The notes: a model not told the origin generated them from the sequence alone. A DNA stretch of 54,758 nt from a virus (IMGVR_UViG_3300005534_000017:1-54758), one strand, 5' to 3'; counted from the first letter of the stretch, positions 1-54,758 are shown. Made by a program: numbers and translations.

Positions 1-9
1 ATGAATACT
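1..9 (+). repeat. Terminal direct repeat ATGAATACT (second copy 54750-54758), circularisation overlap
   Basis: The first and last 9 nt are identical. Collapsing them gives a continuous minus-strand ORF MPYASSIHLNQLPPWYEAISRGMLERS. Confidence 0.9.
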
Positions 10-24
10 TGATGCATATGGCAT
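1..24 (-). CDS. 5' end of the ejection/DNA-transfer protein that continues at 54749..53844 (about 309 aa in total)
   Basis: ATG at 24 lies just after the stop of ORF 27..1583, has an upstream GGAG, and is in frame with ORF 53844..54707 across the junction. Confidence 0.85.
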
Positions 25-26
25 GG

Positions 27-1583
27 TTATCTACTCCGTAAATATTGTGCAATCGGTTTTGCTTTGGGAGGAAGCCCTTTTGTATTAGAACGCTTATGTT
101 TTCTTATATTATTTACCATGTTTTTAAGCATGGAAGCGCCTTTCATATTATTACCTTTTCCAATGGCGGTCACTTCTTCTGGGCTTATAAAAGCTTCTCC
201 CGCTGATACTTTTGCTTTAATTGTTCCACGTGGAACACCACCTTTTTTATAGTGTTTTCCAGATGTAAAATGATGTAGCCCTTTTATTTTATTAATCCCT
301 GCTTCAGTATTTCCATCACCTAAATCGCTCACGGTAGATGCATCTATAACATATCCACCTTCTGGTAAATCTCTATCTAATGTATCAGATTGACCACTTT
401 CATGACCTTGGAATAAGTGACCGCCTTCTGCCATTCTTAATGGCCTATCATAACCAGGACCTGAAAAATACATCATTTCAGGCACAAAACCTGGGTTATA
501 ATTATTGGGGTCAAAATATCTTAATGAGCGTTCGTAAGGATTTAATTCTCTAGGATGATGTTCAGGACCCCATTTTGGTCCATGTTCCGCCATATATTCA
601 GCAGAACTTTTTTCTTTAGGAGTTTCATATTTAGCGCCTAATCCTCCTAAAATAGCGGCTCCTAATAATCCTTTATTTAATAAATTACCGCCTAATAATC
701 CTTCGCCTTCCTTTGAAGCCGCACCACCAAAAAGACCTAATAATCCTTTTCCAGCAGAAGGAGTAGCAGCTTTAGCGCCGGCATTTTTTAAAGCTTCAAA
801 TGCCGCTGCACGTCCGGCTGAACCCGCAGCCACAGCAGGAGCAGCAGCCGATTTTAATCCTAATGCGGCGACAGCTCCGGGAAATAACATATGTTTAGCG
901 GCCCCCATTCCAAGTAGGGTTCCTAATCGACCTGCGGGTGCAATTCCAAATGACCGACCTAACATAGGAGCGCCCACGCCTTGAACAGCTCCATGTAATG
1001 CGCCTCTTAACAAGGCGCGTCCAAGCCGAGGATTTTCAGCATTAGCGGCCTCAACTCCACCGCTTGCCAAGGAGCCTCCTAAAACAGATCCAAATGGTCC
1101 ACCTAGCATCATTCCGGCCGCTGAGCCTAGAGTTGGCGCAACCACATCTCTAAAAATTGGAGCCACTACTTCTGCAACGCTATGACCTGCACCTAAAATA
1201 CCGCCATTTCCGTTGTCACCTTCCCACATTCTTTCCCACCATCCAAATTGAGGTAATCCAGAAATAGGATTAATATCGCCACCATGAAGCATAGAAAGTT
1301 CCATTGCTTCTTGTGGATTGATATGAGCTAATATTTTGTCGTCACCAAAACCTTGTTCTCTTATTTTTTCGACGGCTTTACGAAGTGAATTTAAAGAAAC
1401 TCGACCACCTTTAGCATAAGTTTGTAAGGGCATTGGGTTCACATTAGAATTTTGACTTCCAAAGCTTGGATAGCCTTGCATTCCAAGACCACTATTTCCC
1501 ATGGGTTGAGGAATTTCTTCTTGGTGCATTCCATAGGGAACGTCTTGTTCATAAGGCGTATAAAATTGTGATTCTTGCATCAT
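27..1583 (-). CDS. Internal virion / ejection (DNA-transfer-like) protein
   Basis: Gly/Ala-rich hydrophobic middle, LAHINPQE..GGDINPISGLPQF motif, several (Y/M)xxGG motifs, and position directly after the tail genes. Confidence 0.65.
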   Translation of the reverse strand: MMQESQFYTPYEQDVPYGMHQEEIPQPMGNSGLGMQGYPSFGSQNSNVNPMPLQTYAKGGRVSLNSLRKAVEKIREQGFGDDKILAHINPQEAMELSMLHGGDINPISGLPQFGWWERMWEGDNGNGGILGAGHSVAEVVAPIFRDVVAPTLGSAAGMMLGGPFGSVLGGSLASGGVEAANAENPRLGRALLRGALHGAVQGVGAPMLGRSFGIAPAGRLGTLLGMGAAKHMLFPGAVAALGLKSAAAPAVAAGSAGRAAAFEALKNAGAKAATPSAGKGLLGLFGGAASKEGEGLLGGNLLNKGLLGAAILGGLGAKYETPKEKSSAEYMAEHGPKWGPEHHPRELNPYERSLRYFDPNNYNPGFVPEMMYFSGPGYDRPLRMAEGGHLFQGHESGQSDTLDRDLPEGGYVIDASTVSDLGDGNTEAGINKIKGLHHFTSGKHYKKGGVPRGTIKAKVSAGEAFISPEEVTAIGKGNNMKGASMLKNMVNNIRKHKRSNTKGLPPKAKPIAQYLRSR

Positions 1584-52691: not shown

Positions 52692-52692
52692 T

Positions 52693-53844
52693 TCATTCCT
52701 GCAAAATTCTATCTATTTCTTCCTGAGTCCATCCCTGTTCTTTTGCTTTATTAACTTTATCTAACATTTCTATATCGCCCAGTTCATATGGGGTAATTTG
52801 TTTTCCTGATCTTAAGCTCATGTCTGCTGATTTATGAATTTCTAAAGCTTCTTTTTCAATATCATTTAATAATTGTCCGACAGTATCATATCCTTGGCTT
52901 AAATCAGGGAAAGTTTTCATTTGTTCAAAACGTTTATAGATGCCCTGCGTTAATTGTCCACCCTTTAAATCTTTTTCAGCTCTTGCTCTAAATTGTTGTA
53001 ATTTTGAATTGACCGATTGTCTTTCTAATCTTTCTTTATTAAGTTGTGAGCCTAATTTTGTGCCAGGAATCGTTCTTCCATAAATATCTTTTATAGGATT
53101 AACAGCCCCTCCTATATACGGATTTGCTTGACTCACAAGAGGAGAACCTCTTTCTTCTTCTGTTTCTTTTAATTTCCTTATTCCTGCTTTAATGGTTTCT
53201 ATTTCAGATAAAAGCTTACCCGTTCCTCTATAATCTACAGAATATTTAGAACGAGTTGATTTATCTAAATCAGGAAGATTCGATAAATTAAATCCTTCAA
53301 TAGAAGCTCCCATTCCTGTTTTTTGTCCAAGCTTTTCTCTTGCAAGACCTATCGTAGCCGCTCTATGAGCCTGCAAATCTCTTCTTTCTTGTTCCCTTTC
53401 CTGTTGTCTTTGTAATTCTCTAGCCAAGGCATCTTGTCTTTCCATCTCCAACAAATTCAATTTCTGCATTCTATCGGCATTAACGGCATAATCCTGTATT
53501 CCAGCACCCAATCCTTCATTCAGGCCCCCTAATACGCTTCCCCCTTTATTAGATCCCATGCCCCCAAACATCCTGGAAAATACAAGACCCATTAATCTGT
53601 CATGTTGAGCTTGGTCAATATCGATGGATTGTCGTGCGGCCCCCATTCCTGACATGATACCTCTGGCAACAGGACTTTCTTCCTGTGCTAGCATCGGTGG
53701 TTGTTGTGGCGGAATTACAGGACTTCTAGGTGATTGCACGGGTGTAGGCGGTGCTGGCATTTGGGGTGCCATCATACCAATATTAGATTGACTTAATCTC
53801 ATAGGGTCAAAATACCATTGTTGAGTAGGAGTAAAATAAGCCAT
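52693..53844 (-). CDS. Internal virion/ejection protein
   Basis: Pro/Gln-rich N-terminus, Gly-rich segment, coiled coil. Confidence 0.6.
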   Translation of the reverse strand: MAYFTPTQQWYFDPMRLSQSNIGMMAPQMPAPPTPVQSPRSPVIPPQQPPMLAQEESPVARGIMSGMGAARQSIDIDQAQHDRLMGLVFSRMFGGMGSNKGGSVLGGLNEGLGAGIQDYAVNADRMQKLNLLEMERQDALARELQRQQEREQERRDLQAHRAATIGLAREKLGQKTGMGASIEGFNLSNLPDLDKSTRSKYSVDYRGTGKLLSEIETIKAGIRKLKETEEERGSPLVSQANPYIGGAVNPIKDIYGRTIPGTKLGSQLNKERLERQSVNSKLQQFRARAEKDLKGGQLTQGIYKRFEQMKTFPDLSQGYDTVGQLLNDIEKEALEIHKSADMSLRSGKQITPYELGDIEMLDKVNKAKEQGWTQEEIDRILQE

Positions 53845-54758
53845 TATTTAACCCTCTTTTTCTTAATTGAAGCCAAGCCCGATTTCATATTTAATTCATT
53901 TGAAACACTACCGCCTTTTTTAAATAAACCACGACCACCCGATGCTCTATTTAAACCGTATAATTGACCTGCCAATTGACCAATTTGACCAGAACGATTC
54001 AATTGTTGCTCTGGTTGTTGATGAAGATATTGCATTCCTTGGCTTGAATAAGGCGTTCCTGCAACCGCACCATAAAGGTTAGAAATTTGTTGCCAGGGAT
54101 ATTCTCTTTGTTGTAAAAAGTCTGAATATCCGGTTGCCAAATTTTCTTGTCTTATTCCTCTTGCTCTTTCACCCGAACTTTCTAGTGCGGCAATATCAGC
54201 CAAATGTCCGGCTTGCCTTTGCTGTCCAAGAGCTGCCATTTGACGAGCTGCTTCCATTTGACGAGCCATATCGGTTGCATGTAATTGACCTGCTTGTTGA
54301 TACCCTGATGCGAGCGCTTGTTGCTGCCTATCGGCTATTGCTTGCTGAACATCACGAGCTGCACGCTCTGTCAATTTTCGATGCATCCCACCACCATAGG
54401 TTCCACCACGAACAAAAGTAGACTCAAGACCTGGGCGAATTCCTTCATTAAATGTTCTTAATCCCTCTGTTCTTAATCTATCTAAAACAGCTTGCATGTA
54501 GGGATTCATATAAGCTTGGAAATTTTGAGTAAAGGGAGTAGCAGCTTGTGCAAATCCTTGTTCAGCTGATTGTAAATAAGGTAAATAAACGCCTTCTCGC
54601 CTTGATAATTCTTCCGCCCTTCTCAAATCTGGCGTCATTTCGGCAACACGAGGACCTGTAAAAGGCGCATATGGAGCTTGAGATAATTGTTGAGAACGTT
54701 CTAACATTCCACGAGAAATTGCTTCATACCATGGTGGAAGTTGATTAAGATGAATACT
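53844..54758 (-). CDS. DNA-transfer/ejection protein (starts at position 24 across the junction)
   Basis: PY.PF.GPRVA, YMNPY.Q.V, G.YGG and Y.DFL.QR.YPWQQ motifs; the frame is open to the window end. Confidence 0.75.
   Translation of the reverse strand, partial: SIHLNQLPPWYEAISRGMLERSQQLSQAPYAPFTGPRVAEMTPDLRRAEELSRREGVYLPYLQSAEQGFAQAATPFTQNFQAYMNPYMQAVLDRLRTEGLRTFNEGIRPGLESTFVRGGTYGGGMHRKLTERAARDVQQAIADRQQQALASGYQQAGQLHATDMARQMEAARQMAALGQQRQAGHLADIAALESSGERARGIRQENLATGYSDFLQQREYPWQQISNLYGAVAGTPYSSQGMQYLHQQPEQQLNRSGQIGQLAGQLYGLNRASGGRGLFKKGGSVSNELNMKSGLASIKKKRVK

Follow-up and report, generated by a model that had tools for sequence, protein, structure and literature searches.

Hairpins shaped like CsrA operators on the late genes of a small phage clade, with and without a phage csrA gene

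The closest described systems to the one considered here are the operators of the CsrA family of RNA-binding proteins and the csrA genes carried by some phages. The 10-nt CsrA consensus, beside which there is one from systematic evolution of ligands by exponential enrichment (SELEX), is (A/U)CANGGANG(U/A), the core CANGGANG being closed by a C-G pair, and the known Csr/Rsm sponge small RNAs (sRNAs) present many GGA motifs in loops. In the window, by which we mean the whole 54,758-bp stretch of IMGVR_UViG_3300005534_000017, an IMG/VR virus record of soil metagenome origin with a completeness rating of 100%, a phage csrA gene occurs together with a set of small hairpins that present GGA in the loop at the ribosome-binding sites (RBSs) of late genes. 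Probably selection maintains these hairpins as RNA elements in the late polycistronic mRNA of one small clade of phages.

Phage csrA genes as such are already known, and the informative part is the conserved, clade-specific hairpin set, which occurs with or without a phage csrA. According to the portions of the papers that are accessible, 30 phages carry csrA (Sobrero & Valverde 2020, PMC7366521), phage CsrA has been proposed to suppress host defences, with phage and host CsrA tending to co-occur (Campa et al. 2021, PMC8450108), and knock-down of the csrA homologue of phage PTXU04 led to small plaques, what csrA does during the phage life cycle being described there as previously untested (Adler et al. 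2025, PMC11879866). In the collection searched here, 88 phage records have a CsrA homologue. The accessible text of these three papers describes no operator-like hairpins on phage late genes, and no publication on CsrA-type operators on such genes was found in the full-text literature searched, which covers few subscription journals and main texts without supplements. What the same literature offered on Shine-Dalgarno (SD) sequences in hairpin loops of phage late mRNA was mostly T4 RegB papers, none of them on such hairpins.

The virion module of the window lies on the minus strand, running from 27429 down to 1 and then from 54758 down to 47390, and small early genes occupy both strands at 27451-47368; a simple in-house caller with some hand curation gave 94 genes, 36 late and 58 early. 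The hairpins on the late RBSs are real, late-specific and shaped like CsrA operators (Table 1). A hexaloop of the form A.GGA. on a stem of at least 3 bp was found for 14 of 31 A.GGA. motifs at late RBSs, for none of 25 at early RBSs and for 26 of 360 elsewhere on both strands (Fisher p = 1.1e-7 for late against the rest and 4.6e-5 against early), and with stems of at least 4 bp the counts are 11/31 for late RBSs and 9/360 elsewhere. A second test used sampled structures of windows from -35 to +15 and scored the probability that the GGA of the RBS lies in a hairpin loop of at most 10 nt. The mean for late genes (31 of 36 have a GGA) is 0.476, compared with 0.193 +/- 0.049 in 60 flank shuffles, which keep GGA and AUG and preserve mononucleotide, not dinucleotide, content; 11 late genes exceed 0.9, compared with 1.5 +/- 1.0 (maximum 4) after shuffling. 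The early genes (45 of 58 with GGA) have a mean of 0.192, their shuffles 0.182 +/- 0.039, and late and early values differ (Mann-Whitney p = 0.004). An earlier note, made from the sequence of the window, had pointed out GGA loops at late gene starts and had described the early SD sequences that it inspected as lying in unstructured A-rich context; both observations are borne out, and those of its coordinates that were checked are all correct.

The G+C content of the late region is higher than that of the early region. However, the background rate of hairpins in sense-strand coding sequence is alike in the two (late 11/152, early 5/78), so G+C content is not the cause of the enrichment. The strict consensus WCANGGANGW occurs 10 times in the window, compared with 4.33 +/- 2.23 in 100 shuffles, 3 of which reach 10. 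Six of the ten matches, at 1590, 9844, 12262, 17380, 19144 and 27335, lie at late ribosome sites, exactly where the earlier note had placed them; the others are at 18348 (within a late gene), at 31464 and 43742 (early gene starts) and at 43138 (plus strand, intergenic). The late hairpins sit at cistrons preceded by an intergenic spacer. Each has an ANGGAN hexaloop, for which 5'C-G3' is the usual closing pair, and a weak stem of 3-6 bp. A spacer of at least 5 nt precedes 13 of 16 genes with a hairpin and 6 of 19 without one, and translationally coupled late cistrons mostly lack the element. Restricting the comparison to spacers of 5-60 nt leaves 14 late genes, 9 of which have a hairpin, and 14 early genes, of which 1 does (p = 0.002). 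Taken one at a time the hairpins have little stability (-1 to -7 kcal/mol), and the majority fall short of significance on their own. Under a looser definition (loop of 3-8 nt, stem of at least 4 bp, G.U allowed) the background rises to 33%, and the late RBSs give p = 0.0006 in the window and 0.07 in the relative G002 described below.

The geometry of the hairpins was counted over the window and two relatives, G002 and G001, pooled. Of 47 late RBS hairpins with GGA loops of 3-8 nt on stems of at least 4 bp, 23 show the CsrA register, with GGA at positions 3-5 of a hexaloop or in a closed N-GGA tetraloop; 96 of 896 such hairpins in the background and 7 of 50 at early RBSs do so (p = 3.6e-10). 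Late hexaloops are closed by 5'C-G3' in 14 of 25 cases, as against 4 of 50 in the background (p = 1e-5), and a 5'G closes none of the 25 late hexaloops but 14 of the 50 background ones. Loop position 6 is U in 11/25 late hairpins and in 26/118 unstructured RBS motifs (p = 0.024), even though the anti-SD sequence would be matched better by a G there, and loop position 2 is not A in 13/25. Hairpins of at least 3 bp reach 4 bp or more in 17 of 25 late and 22 of 50 background cases (p = 0.04). Nine of the 25 late hairpins contain G.U pairs, and those nine can therefore form only in coding-strand RNA. Late RBSs combine presentation of A-N-GGA-N in a loop, a C-G closing pair and overlap with the SD sequence or start codon; they are structured and often read GGAU, whereas the early ones, AAGGAG in A-rich context, lack structure. 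In loop and closing pair the late hairpins match CsrA operators more closely than their SD content accounts for.

The individual hairpins were selected with the first G of GGA at -25 to +5, and most loop GGAs lie at -8 to -14 from AUG, the distance of an SD sequence; two hairpins lie over AUG. The hairpins that the earlier note had named at terL, the portal and major capsid genes, 19909-19922, 7252-7265, 50367-50390 and the start of the window (here 29-43, there 29-45) are all present, as are its three UCAAGGAUGA copies with the outer pairs AC/GU, UU/AA and AU/AU. The GGA of the terL hairpin sits 1 nt from AUG and cannot be an SD sequence, and gene 18132-19151 has its own SD (AGGAG) upstream of the hairpin that holds its start codon, so the loop GGA there is not an SD either. 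The stem on the first late gene contains two G.U pairs and therefore pairs only as RNA of the minus strand. Two longer hairpins are individually stable, with 0 of 200 shuffles as stable in either case: that of the portal (-6.6 kcal/mol) and that of gene 48498-50369 (-6.8 kcal/mol, loop probability 0.99). The hairpin ahead of the C-terminal terL piece is doubtful, its loop probability being just 0.05 in a 50-nt fold. Second GGA elements upstream, which the earlier note had seen on some genes, exist at 9861-9873 (a GGA triloop atop a 5-bp AU stem), at 12278-12295 and, among relatives, in the leader of the capsid gene, and are not generally enriched. The label groES given there to gene 19173-19904 can be kept from gene order in annotated relatives only; Pfam gave no match for 19173-19904/19940.

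Table 1. Coordinates of csrA, of candidate sites near it, of a candidate small transcript and of the GGA hairpins in the window. Loops are in square brackets.
Feature	Coordinates	Strand	Basis or value
csrA, 65 aa	35917-36114	+	Translation, Pfam profile match
Promoter-like site TTGCAA, 16 nt, TATCAT, TG before it	35820-35847	+	Consensus scan
Terminator-like hairpin, 11 pairs and T-rich tail	36154-36181	+	1 found vs. 0.4 expected
Intergenic stretch, candidate small transcript or 3' untranslated region	43084-43212	+	Promoter-like site, hairpin, terminal stem
AUUUAC[GGA]GUAGAU ahead of AUG at 24-22	29-43	-	Frame runs off window start
ACUC[AAGGAU]GAGU on RBS of gene 27-1583	1588-1601	-	-3.7 kcal/mol; loop probability 0.99
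UCAA[AAGGAA]UUGA on RBS of gene 5938-7248	7252-7265	-	Loop probability 0.585
UUUC[AAGGAU]GAAA on RBS of tail-fibre-like gene 7266-9839	9842-9855	-	Loop probability 0.945
Further hairpin with GGA loop, some 20 nt upstream of 9842-9855	9861-9873	-	Position -29
AUUC[AAGGAU]GAAU on RBS of tail-fibre-like gene 9870-12254	12260-12273	-	Loop probability 0.955
Second upstream hairpin AAGCC[CAGGAUGA]GGCUU	12278-12295	-	Loop probability 1.0, upstream-zone fold
ACAU[GGAGGGA]AUGU on RBS of gene 14639-14878	14882-14896	-	Loop probability 1.0
GAAU[AGGGAG]AUUC on major capsid RBS (gene 15801-16718)	16722-16735	-	Pattern, folding
UUGUC[ACGGAG]GACGA on RBS of gene 16749-17375	17377-17392	-	Loop probability 0.47
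CUC[AUGGAU]GAG, start codon of gene 18132-19151 in loop	19143-19154	-	Loop probability 0.99
AUUC[AGGGAG]GGAU on RBS of gene 19173-19904	19909-19922	-	Loop probability 0.995
ACAC[AGAGGAUA]GUGU on RBS of gene 20121-20570	20572-20587	-	Loop probability 0.98
9-bp hairpin, GGA triloop, burying portal start codon (gene 21062-23461)	23458-23478	-	Folding
AUGC[AUGGAC]GCAU, position -23 of C-terminal terL piece (24177-25370)	25386-25399	-	Doubtful
GGCC[AUGGAU]GGCU over terL start (gene 26125-26916)	26911-26924	-	-4.9 kcal/mol; loop probability 1.0
UCUUAC[AUGGAG]GUAGGG on first late gene (26926-27327)	27331-27348	-	Loop probability 0.995
10-bp AU-rich hairpin, AGGA loop, reaching start codon of gene 48498-50369	50367-50390	-	Folding

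Two observations belong beside this list. The adjacent large proteins 7266-9839 and 9870-12254 (minus strand) are paralogues, with 44% identity across 232 repeat-rich residues, and their genes have the first codons and the UCAAGGAUGA ribosome site in common. A further GGA-loop hairpin at 16745-16760 (minus strand) covers the UAA that terminates the gene ahead of the capsid gene and is weak in the window; in the loci L002, L083 and L086 and in the window the outer pairs of this capsid-leader element covary, while the UAA/UUA inner stem stays constant.

Two relatives were compared in full: G002 (58,468 bp, rated 100% complete), whose major capsid protein is 59% identical and whose late module is syntenic, and G001, a fragment of 20,857 bp whose capsid protein shows 75% identity; closer capsid homologues exist (73-86% identical, on contigs of up to 62 kb), and a metagenome scan for close relatives gave short contigs only, L086 and L087. 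The late genes of G002 have a loop probability of 0.463 (shuffles 0.183 +/- 0.060) and hexaloop hairpins on 8 of 21 RBSs, compared with 17 of 354 sites elsewhere. Those of G001 have a loop probability of 0.492 (0.155 +/- 0.077) and, by pattern, 3 of 10 hairpins at 3 bp (p = 0.03) and 1 of 10 at 4 bp, a set too small for significance alone. Hairpins fall on the same genes in the window and G002, with 8 orthologue pairs bearing one in both, 2 in the window only, 2 in G002 only and 13 in neither (p = 0.0015), the terL pair being mis-scored in this comparison because BLAST joined the G002 terL to the C-terminal piece of the window. The early genes of G002 show a slight excess of loop GGA (0.251, shuffles 0.174 +/- 0.034), with hexaloop hairpins on 5 of 44 RBSs.

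As the earlier note had suggested one should look for in related phages, orthologous stems change with pairing kept, and so do those of different sites. The stem of gene 27-1583, ACUC/GAGU, is AUUC/GAAU around the same AAGGAU loop in G002, a compensatory change, and that of the capsid gene, GAAU/AUUC, is kept as such in L083 and replaced by the compensating GUAAC/GUUAC in L086. All three phages retain a hairpin at terL, as GCC[AAGGAU]GGC in G002 and CC[ACGGAU]GG in G001, so that the N position of the loop is U, A or C. The G002 orthologue of gene 16749-17375 carries UCGUC[AUGGAG]GACGA with a loop probability of 0.98, and that of gene 14639-14878 has a hairpin with a different stem (0.84); the hairpin at 19909-19922 is kept in G001 (0.99), and portal hairpins occur in both G001 and G002 (0.88 and 0.96).

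This set appears to be specific to the clade of the window, G002 and G001, and not general to the late genes of the phage family. The distant named relatives, with capsid proteins 35-39% identical, include the pelagiphages HTVC027P and HTVC023P, the roseophages CRP-901 and CRP-902, an Alcaligenes phage and others. Late RBS hexaloop hairpins number 0/14 in HTVC027P, 0/23 in CRP-902, 2/9 in the Alcaligenes phage and 1/8 in DSL-LC04, and the loop probabilities of these four are at shuffle level. Across 65 loci of the wider capsid family, hairpins were found on 25 of 419 RBS motifs, 6 of them from the locus of G002, with a background of 275/4762; these are the loci of at least 6 kb among 89 (L003-L091), 24 shorter ones having been dropped, and two pairs represent the same contig twice. 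Alphaproteobacteria, the hosts of HTVC027P and CRP-902, are not generally known to have CsrA; our control set bears this out for Caulobacter only, which gave no PF02599 match.

The phage csrA of the window, reported as such by the earlier note, is by family membership a true CsrA gene: its product matches Pfam CsrA (PF02599) with 80.2 bits (cut-off 27) over residues 1-50 of a profile with 53 positions, and a six-frame PF02599 search of the window returned csrA at 79.3 bits. The protein aligns gap-free to residues 1-56 of E. coli CsrA (1Y00), with MLILTRR identical, V42, R44 and I47 kept, V40 replaced by I and H43 by D. Mercante and co-workers are said to have identified, in 2006, L2, L4, R6, R7, V40, V42, R44 and I47 (E. 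coli numbering) as RNA-binding residues, and we take the MLILTRR strand with V42, R44 and I47 to be the critical RNA-binding residues of the phage protein, which should be able to recognise hairpins of this kind. The next-best CsrA among 5.8 billion proteins has just 73% identity across 80% of the length, and the closest genomic CsrAs come from many gammaproteobacterial metagenome-assembled genomes (MAGs), at 54-76% identity. With its own promoter-like and terminator-like sites and a nearest protein at 73%, csrA looks like a stand-alone accessory gene; the promoter-like site is a pattern match only, 3 such sites being present in the region where 2.4 are expected. The capsid profile was not found in five of these MAGs. 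A sample of 400 genomes from a single class, a further one being unscored, yielded two matches, both distant (about 200 bits).

No CsrA was found in G001 or G002 by six-frame profile search, and a CsrA BLASTP against all their called proteins gave nothing below E = 0.99. As these relatives carry the hairpins, the hairpins evidently do not depend on the phage csrA, and the link that the earlier note had drawn to the phage's own gene is not supported, the more so as three csrA-bearing phages taken up below are not enriched.

The reading we favour, and hold with moderate confidence, is that the hairpins are operators of the late genes, confined to this clade, and that a protein of the CsrA family reads them. 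This would be host CsrA throughout, joined in the present genome by an accessory phage copy. Since hairpins are present without a phage csrA, the CsrA of the host is the likelier ancestral partner. A CsrA-family dimer would occupy the late hairpins in competition with the 30S subunit, and late-protein synthesis would be damped as long as there is more free CsrA than late mRNA, and would pick up once late mRNA accumulates or host Csr/Rsm sRNAs remove CsrA. Host CsrA would be the ancestral reader, and the phage csrA may be a later, self-contained addition to the same CsrA pool, possibly acting on host targets as well, a role that has been suggested for CsrAs of other phages. We infer binding by CsrA, the direction of its effect and the means of release. 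From the Csr translational switch that the earlier note had proposed, the late-specific, CsrA-shaped hairpins survive, while dependence on the phage csrA and a phage sponge find no support and a two-site layout is not general; a tie to the host Csr growth-phase switch may exist. If CsrA binds, a global regulator of host growth phase would gate the production of phage particles at translation, and phage csrA would gain, beside host manipulation, a second plausible purpose in tuning the phage's own late genes.

Several points weigh against the host-CsrA reading. The SD hexamer preferred by early genes, AAGGAG, shares the register of the CsrA hexaloop, and because A.GGA. overlaps the SD sequence in that register, an SD-sized loop would mimic a CsrA hexaloop. 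Two sites per mRNA, at least 10 nt apart for bridging by the dimer, are given as the minimum for optimal repression, and single-site searches are said to yield many false positives, in the accessible part of PMC4066749. Here, A(N)GGA occurs at -65 to -23 in 13 of 36 late genes and in 167 of 656 gene-body windows (p = 0.11), and the loop probability of this upstream zone at late genes is 0.096 (shuffles 0.076 +/- 0.048), so that no excess of second sites is seen. Hairpins on the high-output capsid and scaffold genes mean that repression requires a release step, and no release element for these genes was found in the window. The presence of CsrA in the host, gammaproteobacterial or otherwise, is presumed. 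DSL-LC04, whose host on record belongs to the Gammaproteobacteria, is also without the pattern. Finally, the unrelated csrA-bearing phages Vibrio 219E41.2 (1/14 late), Providencia PSTCR8lys (0/4) and Pseudomonas phi297 (0/2) show no enrichment, their loop probabilities being at shuffle level, although the late sets of the latter two are small.

The main rival, which deserves tentative consideration even if we think it rather unlikely, dispenses with CsrA: at each independently initiated late cistron a small local hairpin would present the SD sequence or start codon, keeping the site single-stranded and shielded from the long structured polycistronic mRNA, or it would act as a mild brake until terminating ribosomes open it. 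The SD distance of most loop GGAs, the association of hairpins with intergenic spacers, a hexaloop register equal to the 6-nt early SD AAGGAG, the lack of second-site enrichment and the hairpins of a csrA-less relative all suit this explanation, and the conserved capsid-leader hairpin over the preceding stop codon fits a link between termination and re-initiation. It leaves unexplained, however, the orientation bias of the closing pair and the drift away from the best SD sequence at loop positions 2 and 6. Nor does it account for hairpins whose GGA is not an SD (19143-19154, the terL start, 12278-12295 and the capsid leader), or for the relatives of the same gene order, and the early genes with similar spacers, that do without hairpins.

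A variant that retains CsrA, and that we regard as unlikely, makes the late mRNAs both target and sponge: with about half of the independently translated virion genes wired to host CsrA, they would form a titration-based translational timer in which host CsrA is stripped and phage csrA raises or resets the threshold. Stray late transcripts would then stay silent, expression would switch on sharply when late mRNA exceeds free CsrA or host sRNAs rise, and the flood of operators would strip CsrA from host targets.

We give little credence to another reader, such as an unrecognised RNA-binding protein of phage or host peculiar to this clade, or to protection from a RegB-like GGAG endoribonuclease that would inactivate the unstructured early AAGGAG sites. 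The trait is clade-specific, the early sites are unstructured AAGGAG and the late ones structured and often GGAU, and most early proteins belong to no known family; T4 RegB cuts GGAG in early mRNAs, according to the accessible part of PMC1702504. Against it, no RegB homologue (PF10715) was found in the window, PHROGs and Pfam scans of about 50 proteins recognised no RNA-binding family besides CsrA, and the early proteins that the window and G002 have in common number just four (one of the YopX family, one resembling a replication initiator and two of unknown function). The preferred loops and closing pairs, moreover, are those of CsrA specifically.

Still less probable is a circuit entirely of the phage's own, in which its CsrA silences the virion genes and a phage sponge RNA, for example from 43084-43212, releases them. 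Besides the coexistence of csrA and operator-like hairpins in one genome, this idea can draw on that intergenic stretch, which has a promoter-like site, AAGGAU, one UC[AUGGAU]GA hairpin (exact UCAUGGAUGA) and a 14-bp stem followed by UUUU, although the terminator scan made no call there. The best gap, 43022-43217 (plus strand), contains four GGA, only one of them presented in a loop, and the candidate is not conserved in G001 or G002. None of 18 intergenic gaps of at least 90 nt has more than one loop-presented GGA, and Rfam at the gathering threshold gave 0 matches in the window, so the phage side of the release by titration that the earlier note had envisaged finds no counterpart. The complete genome of G002 has hairpins without CsrA, csrA itself is an orphan with its own promoter-like and terminator-like sites, and 219E41.2, PSTCR8lys and phi297 carry csrA without late enrichment.

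That the GGA-rich SD sequences merely acquired flanking pairs by chance, in a region of somewhat higher G+C, is scarcely credible, for although single stems are weak and mostly insignificant alone and late G+C is higher, none of 60 composition-keeping shuffles reaches the observed mean, and none has more than 4 genes above 0.9 where 11 are observed; the late and early coding backgrounds are alike, and the pattern is conserved on orthologous genes and absent from 65 related loci.

The stretch 14000-24000 has no near-identity DNA match among named phages. Of the sequencing runs, one DNA run, probably the source, contains the window, and no RNA run does among those listed. The virion module encodes a terminase in pieces, a portal, a Mu gpT-type major capsid protein, tail-fibre-like paralogues and a K1-lyase-like tailspike. 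The early region includes a double helix-turn-helix (HTH) regulator, a MarR-like protein, LPD29, a replication-initiator-like HTH_36 protein and csrA. Regulators and nucleases at 32057-32563, 36250-37332 and 47390-48501 comprise a double-HTH Cro/CI-type protein, an HTH_36 initiator-like protein, VRR-NUC and a ParB-like nuclease. A tRNA scan of the window found none, an integrase search of it was negative, and the lifestyle may be lytic or one of plasmid-like lysogeny. An apparent minus-strand gene starts with AUG at 24-22 and its frame resumes at 53844-54758, the other end of the record; as this gene seems to span both ends, the linear record is probably a circular or circularly permuted genome cut within a gene. 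The late protein 4009-4893 (minus strand, 294 aa) carries the C-terminal domain of a K1 capsule-specific polysaccharide lyase (61.7 bits), which hints at an encapsulated host.

The terL gene is split over three reading frames at 24177-26916 (minus strand). Its N-terminal piece (26125-26916) ends in the N-part of a HINT/intein domain, a separate open reading frame (ORF) at 25334-26128 encodes an HNH domain (Pfam 21.7 bits), and the C-terminal piece (24177-25412) begins with the intein C-part and continues with Terminase_6C. In G001 and G002 terL is a single unbroken gene of 528 aa. The arrangement in the window suggests a split intein accompanied by a homing endonuclease that stands free of it. 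Small ORFs in 39907-41171 (plus strand), with starts at 39913, 40302, 40486, 40824 and about 40080, share the start context ...GGTCATGAGTGAT.

Compared with known systems, the late hairpins resemble most closely the CsrA/RsmA/RsmE operators and the stem-loops of RsmZ, RsmY and CsrB, which are alike in the A-N-GGA-N hexaloop, the 5'C-G3' closing pair and a short weak stem over the SD sequence or start codon; the PDB 2JPP family, a CsrA-operator structure, is among the matches of the phage CsrA comparison. They differ from those operators in lying on phage virion genes, on about half of the independently initiated late cistrons, and usually as one site per cistron with no enriched second site; binding by a CsrA-family reader is predicted here. 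The phage CsrA shares with other phage CsrA/Rsm homologues its small size and the conserved residues of the N-terminus and the R44 region, but the published ones, as far as the accessible parts of those papers go, are discussed for host targets such as CRISPR-Cas, whereas here it is the hairpins and not the gene that are conserved. The stretch 43084-43212 recalls the sponges CsrB, CsrC and RsmX/Y/Z in its promoter-like site, AAGGAU, UC[AUGGAU]GA hairpin and terminal stem followed by U, and differs from them in having one loop GGA, no Rfam match and no conservation in relatives. Control by RegB and RegA in T4 is similar in that early and late ribosome sites are treated differently at the RNA level. 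RegA targets are AU-rich, unlike the late hairpins described here, and in place of the cleavage of early sites by RegB, of which the window has no homologue, this clade carries hairpins on its late sites.

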